A stretch of 64,000 nt of DNA from Chloroflexota bacterium. Its GTDB lineage: Bacteria > Chloroflexota > Dehalococcoidia > Lucifugimonadales > Lucifugimonadaceae. The DNA lies in contig PBHC01000005.1 in NCBI GenBank assembly GCA_002719295.1, positions 64,001-128,000 of the forward strand, read 5' to 3'. The position numbers were made by a program, and so were the translations under genes. Below are positions 29,676-59,873 of this stretch, in pieces. The stretch's first letter is position 1; each line of letters begins with the position of its first letter. The notes beneath the pieces were generated by a model. The model was given only the letters and a program-made list of their open reading frames with translations. It was not told the DNA's origin and made no database searches.

Positions 29676-30527
29676 TTAGTTATCCTCTAAGTCTTTAAGA
29701 AAATTTTCAATTTCAGGAGGCAGATCAATTTCTTCTTTTTCAGAAGCTTCTATCTCAAATTGTTTTATCATTTCATTAACTTGATTGTTATTTTGTAGAT
29801 TTTTGTGTATTTCAATATATTGATTTTCACCTTTTTTTCTTTCGGGAAAATCTTTTGAGAATTTATATATATGAGATAAGCTTTCTAACAATCTAGATGT
29901 AGCTAGAAAATCATCTTCTAGTTTTACATAAAGAGGGATATGTACCATTAGGGATAATGTTTCTAAAGAGAGATCATTGTGTAAAATTTGTGATAACTGT
30001 GAAGTCATACTTGTTGGTCCTGTATAATTTGATTTGTTTTTTAATGTTTCATTTAATGGTTCAGGTGGAATCCATCCTTTATAGCTTCCAGTGACGGGTA
30101 AAGGTTTAGTATGAGGTACAGAATCAAACATTCCTCCTATAGAAATATATCTTTTACCTTGAAGATTTTTAATTAAATCAACAATAGCTAAATTAAATTC
30201 CTCTGCAAAATTATGAGGTTCCAAAAGATATAGTAAAAAAATATTTTGATCAGATTGATTTTTACTTCCGAAAATAACAGTATTAGGAATTCTGATTTTT
30301 CTTTCACCATTTTCATTTAATAGTTCAGGTCTATAACGAGTCATATCATAATATTTACTAGGGTTCTTAAGCTTTCCAATTTCTTCAAGATTAAAAATTT
30401 TTACTAATCTGCTAATTGTATGGTGACCAACATTCCCAACATTTATCCAAGGCCTAAGAATACTTATAAAATGACTATTTTTATAGTTTGATATAGGTAT
30501 ATTTAGTTCAAATTCTTTAATATTCAA
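29676..30527 (-). CDS. PAC2 (proteasome assembly chaperone-like) family protein
   Basis: PWINVGNVG, YYDMTRYRP, LEPH, DSVPHTKP, YTGPTS, HIPLY, EIENFL. Confidence 0.8.
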   Translation of the reverse strand: MNIKEFELNIPISNYKNSHFISILRPWINVGNVGHHTISRLVKIFNLEEIGKLKNPSKYYDMTRYRPELLNENGERKIRIPNTVIFGSKNQSDQNIFLLYLLEPHNFAEEFNLAIVDLIKNLQGKRYISIGGMFDSVPHTKPLPVTGSYKGWIPPEPLNETLKNKSNYTGPTSMTSQLSQILHNDLSLETLSLMVHIPLYVKLEDDFLATSRLLESLSHIYKFSKDFPERKKGENQYIEIHKNLQNNNQVNEMIKQFEIEASEKEEIDLPPEIENFLKDLEDN

Positions 30528-30614
30528 TTTATTTTATTTAATTCTTTTTTTAAAAATTTTACATATTTATATAATAAAAATAAATGTATCAAAAATAAAA
30601 AATAAAAAAAGTTA

Positions 30615-30643
30615 TTGAAATAATTTTTTGATATCACTATTAT
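30615..30643 (+). promoter_or_regulatory. Sigma70-type promoter TTGAAA-N17-TATTAT
   Basis: Each box is 5/6 consensus with 17-nt spacing; predicted start about 30650. Confidence 0.6.
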
Positions 30644-30703
30644 TTAATTGTAATGCTTATGCATTATTTAAATTTAAACAAGTATGAAAGGAGGATATTT
30701 TAA

Positions 30704-30739
30704 TTGGAAACGAATAATAAGCGAGGTGCTCTTAACTGA
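30704..30739 (+). CDS. Putative 11-aa micro-peptide METNNKRGALN
   Basis: TTG start 9 nt after AAAGGAGG (30687-30694); TGA stop at 30737-30739. Confidence 0.35.
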   Translation: METNNKRGALN

Positions 30740-30766
30740 AGGCGCCAAGAGGGTTAAGATACCTCC

Positions 30767-30823
30767 ACTAAGAGTGAAATTATCCGGTAAGGTTTCTCCT
30801 TACCCGATAATTTCACTCTTAGT
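30767..30823. repeat. Long inverted repeat (18 bp + C/C mismatch + 7 bp, 5-nt loop)
   Basis: ACTAAGAGTGAAATTATC-C-GGTAAGG tttct CCTTACC-C-GATAATTTCACTCTTAGT. Confidence 0.95.
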
Positions 30824-30844
30824 ATTTAAAAAGAGATAAAAAAA

Positions 30845-31327
30845 ATGATTAGACATTTTACTTCTACTGTTTTTGTAGTATTTGAAAATAAAATAGCTTT
30901 GCATTGGCATGAAAAGGTCAACATGTGGTTACCTCCAGGTGGACATGTTGACAATAATGAAGATCCCATTCAAACAGCAATTCGTGAGTGTAAAGAAGAA
31001 ATGGGAATTGATATATCTATATTTTCTGATAGCTCTTATAAATTTACTGATGATAATTTGAAAAATATTTATCCACCAGAAACGATACTTATAGAAAACG
31101 TAAATGATAATAAAACAGGACCACATCAGCATATCGATTTTATTTATTTTGGTTATCCTAACTATTCTAAGTTCGATTTAAATTCTGAATGGATTTGGGT
31201 AAATAAAAAAGATTTAATTAATGAAGTTGAATTTAAGAATCCATACTCGAAATATTTTCCACCACCTAATGATGTTAAAATTTTAGGTATTGAGGCGTTA
31301 CTTAAATTAAAAAATCTGAACAAATAG
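30845..31327 (+). CDS. NUDIX hydrolase
   Basis: Nudix box GGHVDNNEDPIQTAIRECKEEMG; RHFT N-terminus, HQHIDFIY. Confidence 0.92.
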   Translation: MIRHFTSTVFVVFENKIALHWHEKVNMWLPPGGHVDNNEDPIQTAIRECKEEMGIDISIFSDSSYKFTDDNLKNIYPPETILIENVNDNKTGPHQHIDFIYFGYPNYSKFDLNSEWIWVNKKDLINEVEFKNPYSKYFPPPNDVKILGIEALLKLKNLNK

Positions 31328-33283: not shown

Positions 33284-33835
33284 TTGAAATCATTTGAAAA
33301 TTATAAAACGCTCTTAGATGAAGATGATATCAGACGAGCAGTAGCACGTTTGTCACACGAAATTATAGAGTCAAATCAGGGCACGAATAACCTAATTTTA
33401 ATTGGTATAGAAACAAGAGGGCATCATATAGCATCAAGAATTGTTAATATGATTAATACTTTTGAAAATGCTACCCTTAATTGTTACTCAATTAATCCTC
33501 AGTTTTTTAGAGATGATATCAAAAACAAAAATCAGAAACCTAAAATAGATTTAAGAGTTGATGTTCATGAGAAAAATCTAATATTGATTGATGATGTTTT
33601 ATATACTGGCAGAACTATAAGAGCAACATTAGAAGCAATTTTTAAGCTTGGAAGACCTAATAGTATAAAACTTGCAGCCCTTGTAGACAGAGGTCATAGA
33701 GAAATTCCTATAAGACCAGATTTTATTGGTAAAAGTATTCCAACTGCAAATTCTGAACACGTAAAAGTTTTTATGAAAGAAGAAGATGGTATAGATAAAG
33801 TAGGTTTATCAAAGGAGCAAATCGCCAATATATGA
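33284..33835 (+). CDS. pyrR: Pyrimidine operon regulator / uracil PRTase PyrR
   Basis: RLSHEIIE, IDDVLYTGRTIRA, LVDRGHREIPIRPDFIGK. Confidence 0.97.
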   Translation: MKSFENYKTLLDEDDIRRAVARLSHEIIESNQGTNNLILIGIETRGHHIASRIVNMINTFENATLNCYSINPQFFRDDIKNKNQKPKIDLRVDVHEKNLILIDDVLYTGRTIRATLEAIFKLGRPNSIKLAALVDRGHREIPIRPDFIGKSIPTANSEHVKVFMKEEDGIDKVGLSKEQIANI

Positions 33836-34767
33836 ACTACCTAGCAAAACATTTATTAGACATAGATCATCTTTCAAAAGATTATATCTATGATTTACTT
33901 ATAGGTGCAAAGAATATCAAAAATAACAAAAACAATTCTGACTTTAACTTTAAAGGTAAAGATGTCTGTGCACTATTTTATGAGGATTCTACAAGAACAA
34001 AACTAAGTTTTCAAAAAGCAGCTAGTAATCTTAATCTAAATTTTCATAATCTTGATGTTCAAAAGTCCAGTTTAAATAAAGGAGAGTCTTTTTATAACAC
34101 AATAAAAACAATTAATAGTATTGGTATGGATTTAATTATCATTAGGCATTTTTCATCTGGAGCTGCTTACTTTTTAGCAAAAAATACAAATTCGTCAGTT
34201 ATAAATGCTGGAGATGGCTCACATGCCCATCCTACTCAAGCACTTTCTGATTTATTAACTATTTATGAATTAGAGAACAACTTTGAAGATTTAGAAATTT
34301 CAATTATTGGAGATGTTTTATACAGTCGTGTTGCTAGGTCAAATGTTTTAGGTTTGCTTAAAATGGGGGCAAAAATAAATATTCTTGGACCAAAAGAATT
34401 AACTCCTAAGGTCATTATAGAAATATATGAATCGATTGATAAATCCTACAATAATAAAATTAAATTTTATGAAGATTTTGAAAAACCAATATTAAATTCA
34501 AATTTTATTATGGCTTTACGTATTCAAAAAGAAAGATTTGATTCTGAAAATTTTATGAATTTTCATGCATATAAATGGAAAATTGATACTGAAAAATTAG
34601 AATCTTTTAAAAATAATGTTTTTGTAATGCACCCAGGGCCAGTAAATGAAGAAATTGAATTGTCACACGAAATTGTACACTCTGAACGTTCTCTAATATC
34701 TAAACAAGTAGAAAATGGAGTCCACATAAGACAAAAAGTTATAGAGGAGTTGTTAGAAAATGAATAA
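33832..34767 (+). CDS. pyrB: Aspartate carbamoyltransferase catalytic subunit
   Basis: FYEDSTRT, INAGDG, HPTQAL, MHPGP. Confidence 0.97.
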   Translation: MNYLAKHLLDIDHLSKDYIYDLLIGAKNIKNNKNNSDFNFKGKDVCALFYEDSTRTKLSFQKAASNLNLNFHNLDVQKSSLNKGESFYNTIKTINSIGMDLIIIRHFSSGAAYFLAKNTNSSVINAGDGSHAHPTQALSDLLTIYELENNFEDLEISIIGDVLYSRVARSNVLGLLKMGAKINILGPKELTPKVIIEIYESIDKSYNNKIKFYEDFEKPILNSNFIMALRIQKERFDSENFMNFHAYKWKIDTEKLESFKNNVFVMHPGPVNEEIELSHEIVHSERSLISKQVENGVHIRQKVIEELLENE

Positions 34768-36091
34768 ACTTTTATTAAAAAATTTTACTATCATTGATCC
34801 TTCTGAAAATTTTAAAAATGTAAAAGATTTATTAATTGTTGAAGGGAAAATTAAAGAGATCTCTGAATCAATTGATTTATCTGATATCAAAATTATTGAA
34901 GGAAATAACAATTATCTCATCCCTGGTCTTATAGATTTACATGTGCATTATAGAGATCCAGGGGAGACTTATAAGGAAGATATAAAAACAGGTTCATATG
35001 CATCTGCCAAAGGTGGATTTACTACTGTAGTTATGATGTCAAACACAAACCCAACAATTGACAATTTAAATTCTTTGATAGAACAAAAAAAACTAATTGA
35101 TCAATATTCTAAAATAAGAGTTCTTCAAACATCCTCGGTAACAGTTGGTAGAAAAGGAAAAGAGATAGTTGATATGGATCTTCTTTCTCAAAACGGTGTT
35201 GTTTCCTTTAGTGACGACGGAGATGTTATATCAGACCCAAATATTCTAAATCAAGCTTTGAAGCTTGCTAATAAAAATAATAGAACCATTTTTGAACATT
35301 GCGAAGACCATGAACTAATCAATGATGGGATTATAAACGATGGAAGTGTTTCAGTTAGATTAGGAATTAAGCCTAGGTCAAAAGAAGCTGAAATAAGTAG
35401 TGTTAAAAGAGATATTGAAATTGCTAAAGAAAATGATTTATGGATTTATTTACAGCATATTTCATGTAAAGAGAGTATTGAACTAATTAGAATAGCTAAA
35501 AATGAAGGAGTAAAAGTCACAGCAGAAGTAACACCACATCATCTGTTTATGAATGAATTTTGGACTTATGGAAAAAAAGGAGACGTGCCTTCTTGGATTG
35601 ACTTAAAATCCTATGACACAAATACAAGAGTCAATCCTCCACTTAGATCTGAACTAGATAGAAAAAGTTTACTTGATGCCATTATGGATGAAACCATCGA
35701 TATCATTGCAACAGACCATGCACCTCATAGTAAGGGGGATAAGTTAGATACTTTTGATAATGCCCCAGCAGGAATAAATGGCGCCGAAACAGCTCTAATT
35801 ACTTTAATGGAATTAGTTGATAGAAAAGAAATAAGTTTTGAAAAGATAGTACAAACTATGTGTAATAAACCTGGAGAAATACTAGATAATATTTTGAACT
35901 TAAAAATAGGAAAAATAAAGAAAAATTACTTAGCAGATCTAGTAATTATAGATAATAATTCCATTACAAAAATTGATGAAGACTTTTTTGTTTCTAAAAG
36001 TAAAAATTCTCCTTTATTAGGATCTGAAATGAAAGGAAAAATAAGAATGACTATTTTTGATGGAAATGTGATATATGAGGACCAGAAATGA
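34760..36091 (+). CDS. pyrC: Dihydroorotase
   Basis: DLHVHYRDPG, EVTPHHL, VNPPLR, ATDHAPH. Confidence 0.96.
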   Translation: MNKLLLKNFTIIDPSENFKNVKDLLIVEGKIKEISESIDLSDIKIIEGNNNYLIPGLIDLHVHYRDPGETYKEDIKTGSYASAKGGFTTVVMMSNTNPTIDNLNSLIEQKKLIDQYSKIRVLQTSSVTVGRKGKEIVDMDLLSQNGVVSFSDDGDVISDPNILNQALKLANKNNRTIFEHCEDHELINDGIINDGSVSVRLGIKPRSKEAEISSVKRDIEIAKENDLWIYLQHISCKESIELIRIAKNEGVKVTAEVTPHHLFMNEFWTYGKKGDVPSWIDLKSYDTNTRVNPPLRSELDRKSLLDAIMDETIDIIATDHAPHSKGDKLDTFDNAPAGINGAETALITLMELVDRKEISFEKIVQTMCNKPGEILDNILNLKIGKIKKNYLADLVIIDNNSITKIDEDFFVSKSKNSPLLGSEMKGKIRMTIFDGNVIYEDQK

Positions 36092-59527: not shown

Positions 59528-59873
59528 AGGTAAAAGAAAGACGAGTGATCGCTGGCTTTGCCAGAGGAAAGTCCGAGCACCACTAGGATAAAGTGCCTGT
59601 TAACGGCAGGGCAGGGCAACCTGACGGATAGTGCAACAGAAAATATACCGCCATTATGGTAAGGGTGAAAAGGTAAGGTAAGAGCTTACCACAAATTTGG
59701 TAACAAGTTTGGTATTGTAAACCCCACTTGGTGCAAGGCTAAATAGAGGAACGATAAGTTATCCTAGACAGTTCCCGGGTAAGCTGCTCGAGCTAGTTGG
59801 TGACAGCTAGCCTAGATGGATGATCACATCTACATATAGAAACAGAACTCGGCTTATAGTCTTTCTTTTATCT
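59528..59873 (+). ncRNA. rnpB: RNase P RNA (bacterial type A)
   Basis: GAGGAAAGTCC, AGTGCAACAGAAA, AAGGGTGAAAAGG, GGTAAGAGC, ACAGAACTCGGCTTA; P1 helix AGGTAAAAGAAAGAC/GTCTTTCTTTTATCT; TATAAT at 59486-59491. Confidence 0.98.

Follow-up and report, generated by a model that had tools for sequence, protein, structure and literature searches.

The window analysed here, a stretch of 64,000 nucleotides (nt) from contig PBHC01000005.1 of a Chloroflexota bacterium (assembly GCA_002719295.1, positions 64,001 to 128,000), carries on its forward (+) strand a small element that appears to be a conserved, free-standing gene for a predicted RNA of ~175 nt, with a core of ~85 nt. The element region has a GC content of 36%, against ~30% genome-wide, and is flanked by a divergent PAC2-family gene on one side and by a NUDIX hydrolase gene (30845..31327, +, PF00293) on the other. 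Hereafter, 'the family' is that of the window, Lucifugimonadaceae, and four segments of the RNA are numbered: segment 1 is the Shine–Dalgarno (SD) sequence, segment 2 the end of a micro-open reading frame (micro-ORF), segment 3 the hexamer GGCGCC and segment 4 a strand ending in CCUCC. Comparisons across genomes draw on 175 parsed elements; removal of L226, a false parse on the opposite strand, leaves 174 copies in 63 clusters, 20 in the family and 43 in other families, each with a representative.

Transcription presumably begins near 30650, downstream of a sigma-70-like promoter (TTGAAA-17-TATTAT, 30615..30643, +) that was the sole site found in 30400–31000, in a scan that by itself is no evidence because shuffled sequences average four sites. 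Both the −35 and the −10 boxes are retained in same-genus copies, and a −10-like hexamer lies 48–91 nt upstream of the SD in 51 of 57 copies. The minimum free energy (MFE) fold starts with a 5′ hairpin (30650..30667, +), whose sequence varies across the genus with pairing still possible in alignments judged by eye; GC-rich relatives in other genera have a larger 5′ stem domain. In other-family copies (e.g. L139–L154) the 5′ domain has a closing stem whose interior is rich in purines, and the motif GAHAGY recurs in it; this arrangement is absent in the window's genus and could be a protein-binding site.

Segment 1 (30686..30704, +), recognized by its complementarity to 16S ribosomal RNA (rRNA), comprises the SD GAAAGGAGG (30686–30694), a spacer and the first base of the start codon. 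The nine SD nucleotides are complementary to the 16S tail of the bacterium's own genome, a strength equalled upstream of just one of 1057 long ATG ORFs of that genome (with crudely placed gene starts), and AAGGAG is invariant across 42 aligned representatives. The putative micro-ORF (30704..30739, +) has a TTG start, 11 codons (METNNKRGALN) and a TGA stop; its end, together with a second SD-like motif, GAGGUG, makes up segment 2 (30723..30737, +), in which GAGG ends 10 nt before the stop. Segment 3 (30741..30746, +) is a palindrome lying in the loop of the hairpin formed by segments 2 and 4 or paired with segment 2, and segment 4 (30752..30766, +) pairs with segment 2 or segment 1. The element closes with a long 3′ hairpin (30767..30823, +), defined by folding and by many two-sided changes over 11 sequences, at the position where other families have a GC hairpin followed by a U-tract, and it is probably a terminator. 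No U-tract was called after the 3′ hairpin in the window; at least six T follow the last hairpin in 9/20 family and 24/43 other-family representatives. A C-C mismatch at 30786/30804 is kept in family 3′ hairpins while the flanking pairs covary, and could be a recognition feature for ribonuclease III or for a protein. Two further reading frames were rejected: a 51-codon ATG frame through the element, with no Pfam match and 9–51 codons in relatives, and, in other families, a second ORF from a GTG after the stop, whose length is not conserved.

Competing helices and their conservation

An earlier note on this DNA had proposed that one strand downstream of the micro-ORF can pair either with the ribosome-binding site or with the ORF end. 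The three segments lie where that note placed them, and both alternatives hold: the SD helix (1:4; 30690–30704 with 30753–30766) has 14 pairs, two of them G-U, and one bulged A, at −13.7 kcal/mol, and the ORF-end helix (2:4; 30723–30736 with 30753–30766) has 13 pairs and one bulged C, at −15.1 kcal/mol. As both take strand 30753–30766, they are mutually exclusive. This double pairing is far beyond chance: of 3000 14-mers drawn at random from the genome, 12 had one upstream partner at ≤−13.7 kcal/mol within 80 nt and none had two, and two were likewise never found in 1000 shuffled cores. Two features had been overlooked, namely a third helix, in which the ORF end pairs with GGCGCC at 30741–30746 (2:3) and which coexists with the SD helix, and the SD-like nature of the ORF-end copy itself, at a fixed distance from the stop. 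Fold z-scores of the 201-nt region are −7.8 on the + strand and −8.3 on the − strand; both strands fold strongly, so folding by itself does not decide the strand; evidence for the + strand comes from the G-U pairs, from the ORF with its SD and from the promoter-like site.

For the window RNA, the closed state, in which 1:4 and 2:3 coexist, is the MFE structure at −66.5 kcal/mol, 7.2 kcal/mol lower than the open state with 2:4, which reaches −59.3 kcal/mol with the start region held open. Predicted barriers, which are findpath upper bounds, are 17.3 kcal/mol for leaving the closed state and 10.1 kcal/mol for leaving the open one. When prefixes of growing length are folded, the SD is free from 30745 through 30764 and closed at 30765, and it pairs with the 5′ arm of the 3′ hairpin in the intermediate prefixes ending at 30798–30804; the 3′ hairpin is formed in all masked full-length folds. 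The earlier proposal that occupancy of the ORF end would close the ribosome-binding site stands computationally, since masking the ORF end of the window RNA raises the SD pairing probability to 1.00, and SD pairing then exceeds 0.5 in 12/20 family and 33/43 other-family representatives. In the window's genus the SD-closed fold is predicted to be the ground state, and the toggle would accordingly begin in the closed position, except where a ribosome has loaded while the RNA was still being transcribed. Free RNA favours 1:4 in six of the 20 family representatives, including all three of the window's genus, and in 2/43 others, and is dominated by 2:4 in 14/20 and 38/43, respectively. In these models the toggle is real as a computed property, best supported in the window's family.

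The two helices that had been proposed as alternatives are both kept in 20 same-genus sequences, where 1:4 is fully retained, but they are unequal: strong covariation is found for the ORF-end helix only. The 2:4 helix is better than shuffles at p≤0.05 in 62 of the 63 clusters, and in a 42-sequence alignment 90.5% of its cells are paired, with two-sided changes in nine of 13 pairs and at most 53% in slid controls. Beyond the GGAGG core, 1:4 shows a weak trend in the family, with 19/20 clusters below the shuffle mean and 2/20 at p≤0.05. Partner swaps gave 0.35 and 0.53 for segment 1 and 0.10 and 0.16 for segment 2, consistent with the shuffle tests. In 173 of the 174 copies the 2:4 hairpin starts 17–21 nt past the first base of the start codon (15 nt in one), just beyond the footprint of an initiating ribosome. 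The large 60–70-nt structured insert that genus g13 (L123–L130) carries in the 2:4 loop brings with it an extra pair of SD-like and anti-SD-like sequences.

Each subtype also keeps an alternative fold. In the family this is 2:3, which is present in 13 of the 14 hexamer-bearing representatives and frees segment 4 for the SD; segment 3 reads GGCGCC in 37 of 49 family copies and GGTACC in four, and is lacking in eight, all from one genus with a large loop insert. Other families have a 3:4 hairpin in 43/43 representatives, with a compensated version in L311, and an invariant UAGGUGUUC at the segment 3 position in 123/125 copies. Such an invariant loop (or, in the family, the palindrome), or the CCUCC strand once translation has released it, might pair with other RNAs, making the element a trans-acting small regulatory RNA gated by the micro-ORF. 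That the gene stands alone would suit this idea, and C-rich anti-SD seeds are used by known small RNAs; the loop conservation is, however, accounted for in cis by the 3:4 hairpin and its compensation in L311, and the loop sequence is replaced wholesale between subtypes, so we regard a trans-acting role as unlikely, if the most credible of the alternatives. A loop match to 16S rRNA (GAACACC) was set aside, a 7-mer being expected by chance and the family loop being different.

The micro-ORF and its second Shine–Dalgarno motif

All 125 other-family copies have 9 nt between the end of the second SD (GRGG) and the stop; of the 49 family copies, 46 have 10 nt and three have 13 nt. A freer test is provided by 29 longer relatives (see below), whose ORFs have 10–24 codons and in which the motif lies 8–11 nt before the stop in 23/29; in 20-codon forms the second SD falls beyond the 46–50 nt spanned by most model matches. 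An equally strong SD-like motif occurs at just 12 of 1057 genomic stops. With this spacing the motif would sit 5–8 nt away from the codon that occupies the P site at termination, and the second SD thus appears to track the stop codon at the usual SD-to-P-site distance. As far as sequence can tell, a hidden second SD ahead of the stop is the order-wide invariant of the element. In a published study, an upstream SD in model post-termination complexes raised mRNA affinity 7-fold and made release 50-fold slower in vitro (PMC5737721).

The ORF itself has 11 codons with a TGA, TAG or TAA stop in 13/13 same-genus loci, and an ORF of 10–12 codons stands behind the SD in 57/57 model-found copies (the script allowed 7–14). 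Start codons in the 175 parsed copies are TTG in 136, ATG in 32 and GTG in seven. The encoded peptides are hydrophilic and 10–12 residues long (e.g. METNNKRGALN and MDSSSRRCSG). They could be the product of a micropeptide gene, basic in character, with the folds merely limiting their synthesis, and the conserved ORF length and stop, together with MDS- starts that recur across the phylum, speak for this. So does codon 2, which is GAT in 37 and GAC in 18 of 65 in other families; it varies synonymously in most other-family ORFs, which leaves room for a role of the peptide. On the other side, the 175 copies encode 99 different peptides, and the C-terminal reading frame, across GAGGUG, differs between subtypes. 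Serine at positions 2–5 is written AGT in 63 of 83 codons at GC-rich loci, as opposed to 41 of 569 in neighbouring long ORFs, and the Ser codons are lost altogether in the window's genus. The ORF is constrained at the nucleotide level, and a micropeptide gene is, in our estimate, distinctly unlikely.

Distribution and neighbouring genes

BLAST places the element in 12/12 same-genus genomes, and a pattern search retrieved 19 metagenome loci, 18 of which continue into the NUDIX start and one of which stops at a contig edge. A first search with model R1, seeded by three distant copies upstream of NUDIX orthologs, matched 112/151 family genomes in 12/19 genera, as well as 16 genomes of other families in which the weak matches were real on inspection. 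Among order genomes, with one match each, R2 matched 72/151 and R3 76/151. A pattern scan of a species collection gave at least 120 loci; among the matches listed, 119 had Dehalococcoidia, SAR202 or Chloroflexota in their titles, and the parser rejected one record from Acidobacteriaceae. It is on the strength of such record titles, for its order, that the window is labelled SAR202. The bacterium's own genome (G000) held no further copies; the element is a single chromosomal copy. A viral scan gave 0 matches.

Beyond the order, R2 returned 0/151 genomes in the class sample and 0/151 in the phylum sample, blanks that are uninformative as R2 also missed G000, and R3 gave weak matches in both samples. 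Inspection of 32 weak matches (two from the order, five from the class sample, 25 from the phylum sample) identified three ordinary gene starts and 29 short ORFs, of 10–26 codons, behind an SD of 11–15 nt (9 nt in one), mostly with a GAY AGT start and often with a terminator-like hairpin; L363, L361 and L365 are doubtful. Within this material, L341–L364 and L328–L334 (f90, f103, f123, f125, f130, f135, f24 and f41) stand out as longer Chloroflexota relatives with a 12–14-nt SD, GAY AGT behind the start, mostly 13–24 codons, a second SD 8–11 nt ahead of the stop and a terminator, and f128 (L352, L356 and L358) as a 15-codon variant with the anti-SD within the ORF and without a second SD, nearer to the layout of rreB, an alphaproteobacterial RNA discussed below. 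When 10 initially negative genomes were searched again under relaxed settings, with 9/18 loci viewed, a diverged copy was clear in G016 and probable in G032, so negative scores in part reflect the limit of detection. In 16 public sequencing runs (13 recorded as RNA, from 10 studies), 0.06–0.16 of sampled words from window positions 30300–31300 were present, a word-level match that is no evidence of expression.

The NUDIX gene downstream of the element raises the possibility that the element is its cis-acting leader or attenuator. NUDIX lies downstream in 32/41 family loci and only 8–18 nt past the model match in three g1 loci checked, and the missing U-tract on the window hairpin would permit read-through. 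The distance ranges from 8 to 1232 nt, however; the family loci without a downstream NUDIX comprise eight of one genus, g13, in which the element is unlinked from it and relocated beside an alpha/beta hydrolase gene, and one at a contig end, and in G024 the two are ~1.1 Mb apart. NUDIX occurs in 0/16 other-family loci, where the element is followed by a convergent gene with a Pfam name in seven, by a co-oriented glycosylase gene in three, by DUF6088 in one and by an unnamed gene in five. The 3′ hairpin, moreover, persists in every masked fold of the window RNA; one intermediate-length prefix (30798–30804) pairs the SD with its 5′ arm. Since neighbours change and are often convergent, the element is a gene in its own right and not a leader; NUDIX is probably syntenic rather than a regulated target, and a leader function is very unlikely.

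Elsewhere in the window lie a bacterial class A RNase P RNA (59533–59872, +, 305.6 bits) and three ORFs (33284–36091, +) which, in their sequence features, resemble pyrR, pyrB and pyrC. In the wider genome, which is 81% complete, a selenocysteine tRNA (tRNA-SeC) lies on contig C16 and no match to 6S RNA was obtained; identical stretches on contigs C1 and C20 suggest a duplication or a redundant assembly.

A proposed ribosome-operated RNA and its known relatives

Taken together, these features mark the element, on sequence grounds, as a real RNA gene that has been conserved, and as a variant within a class that is known but lacks an explanation. The reading that we favour, and to which we give slightly better than an even chance, is that of a mini-mRNA operated by the ribosome, in which translation closes the RNA's own start site; we infer that the RNA is transcribed and translated, that it holds the ribosome and that the act of translation outweighs the peptide. 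In this model, a 30S subunit would load on the 9–15-nt SD and the mostly non-AUG start, within an open stretch of 15–20 nt that ends at the 2:4 hairpin. Elongation would then melt this hairpin, which hides the second SD-like site, and at the stop the second SD would pair with 16S rRNA and delay release. The freed segment 4 (CCUCC) could shift to the first SD and close the start site, a closure that in the family would be aided by 2:3 after the ribosome departs. In the window's genus, loading would occur mainly during transcription, the closed state being the predicted ground state. The most likely outcome would be a self-limiting cycle with one ribosome per RNA at a time, by which the fold and lifetime of the RNA would be tied to ribosome availability, as in the start-codon-dependent turnover of rreB.

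Several points weigh against this model. ORF length and motif spacing were partly imposed, in that the scan pattern fixed the spacing and the parser needed the motif 5–22 nt from the end; six of the 29 longer relatives lack a second SD; related copies are not independent of one another; and SD-driven pausing in vivo is disputed. As for the closing step, the 1:4 helix shows two one-sided and zero two-sided changes in the 20 same-genus sequences, its extension outside the family is no better than shuffles (20/43 below the shuffle mean, mean z −0.10) and the 3:4 hairpin of other families would compete with it; closure may arise as a side effect of concealing an SD-like motif. Finally, rreB overproduction had no effect on growth and its authors dispute simple ribosome sequestration (PMC5711450), and the rreB ORF, as given in the supplementary oligonucleotides, has no GGAGG.

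Two further alternatives concern what a ribosome might do on such an RNA. The element could be a ribosome-storage device of slow-growing Chloroflexota, with a ribosome parked between the two SDs and, in the family, pairing of palindromic loops giving RNA-bridged ribosome dimers, a proposal that we consider improbable; in the loop, 37 copies carry the hexamer GGCGCC and four, from two genera, carry GGUACC, while the plain complement GGCACC never occurs. The hibernation factor HPF (PF02482) was found in one of five genomes tested, which also carries the element, and not in G000 (81% complete) or in G007, G016 and G221 (each at least 95% complete). Least probable of all is that there is no switch, a stalled 30S on the strong SD and one hairpin stabilizing a structural RNA in which the SD helix never forms in the cell: 2:4 does dominate the free RNA in most representatives and 1:4 is without two-sided changes, but both subtypes conserve a second fold (2:3 in 13/14, 3:4 in 43/43), the 1:4 state is the MFE in the window's genus and the short ORF remains intact throughout, with its stop fixed.

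Among catalogued RNAs, Rfam 15 gave no match at gathering score on the element in the window or at 20 homologous loci, and E-value scans returned only sub-threshold hairpin- or terminator-like matches (e.g. BjrC68 and suhB). Transfer-messenger RNA (tmRNA) was rejected, being located on contig C16 with no Rfam match at the element, as was 6S RNA, the element fold not being a single rod and no Rfam match being found. The Ms_IGR-5 family (RF02471), called uncharacterised in a preprint (bioRxiv 10.1101/2021.12.14.472595), had no match at E≤1 in five carrier genomes; in five genomes with distant relatives 0/5 reached 45 bits, the weak matches lying elsewhere and none at the element. No publication on this RNA was found in the literature searched, which did not extend to the supplement of PMC11109978, possibly listing such a motif; a term search of that paper's main text gave only the rdhA motif, for Dehalococcoides.

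The earlier note had also drawn parallels with attenuators and with type I toxin mRNAs, neither of which is supported. Attenuators of the trpL/hisL type likewise place a short ORF over alternative helices that are read by the ribosome. The present element, in contrast, is a stand-alone unit without a conserved downstream operon or co-oriented target gene, without a pathway-linked codon run and, in the full-length folds of the window RNA, without an antiterminator, although one transient prefix fold pairs the SD with the 5′ arm of the 3′ hairpin. SD-like motifs near leader stop codons have been noted (PMC5737721). The type I toxin mRNAs hok, tisB, aapA and txpA have in common with the element two folds and an SD that a CCUCC strand within the transcript masks. 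Here, however, the peptide is hydrophilic and short, with a frame that shifts between subtypes, rather than a small hydrophobic membrane toxin, and the gene is a single chromosomal copy; the promoter scan of the window detected no promoter on the opposite strand, no search having been aimed at an antitoxin RNA.

The closest likeness is to two alphaproteobacterial small mRNAs, rreB and rreR (Hahn et al. 2016, PMC5711450), of which rreB binds 30S subunits, is weakly translated and decays in a start-codon-dependent manner. Common to both systems are a stand-alone unit of ~165–175 nt with its own promoter and terminator (here as sequence evidence), an unusually long SD that a hairpin can sequester, a very short ORF, a variable genomic context and an unassigned function. 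They differ in the SD match, which is 9 nt here (7–15 across copies) and 16–17 nt, reaching the start codon, in rreB/rreR; in 63 representatives the medians are 9 and 11 and the maximum is 15 with G-U pairs, weak matches extending up to 15, with the G000 tail used throughout. The start, a non-AUG codon in most copies and to that extent comparably weak, is UUG here and GUG in rreB/rreR; the ORF has 10–12 codons and 99 peptides, versus 14 or 18 codons and a clade-conserved peptide; and the anti-SD follows the stop, whereas rreB has CACCTC inside its ORF oligonucleotide, the one lacking GGAGG. The second SD and the alternative fold are features of the present element that are not described in the rreB text consulted (PMC5711450). 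By analogy, then, the element would work like the rre type, while failing membership of rreB/rreR as defined. It represents an RNA family without an Rfam match, which roughly every second genome sampled from a SAR202-type order carries, mostly as a single copy, streamlined genomes of 1.3 Mb included, and which has relatives across the phylum. By design it belongs to a small group of ribosome-binding mini-mRNAs lacking an assigned role. Its natural variants, favouring the open or the closed fold, make it a compact test case, one that bears on what an SD placed shortly ahead of a stop codon does in a naturally occurring RNA and on whether translating a tiny ORF can serve as a mechanical switch.
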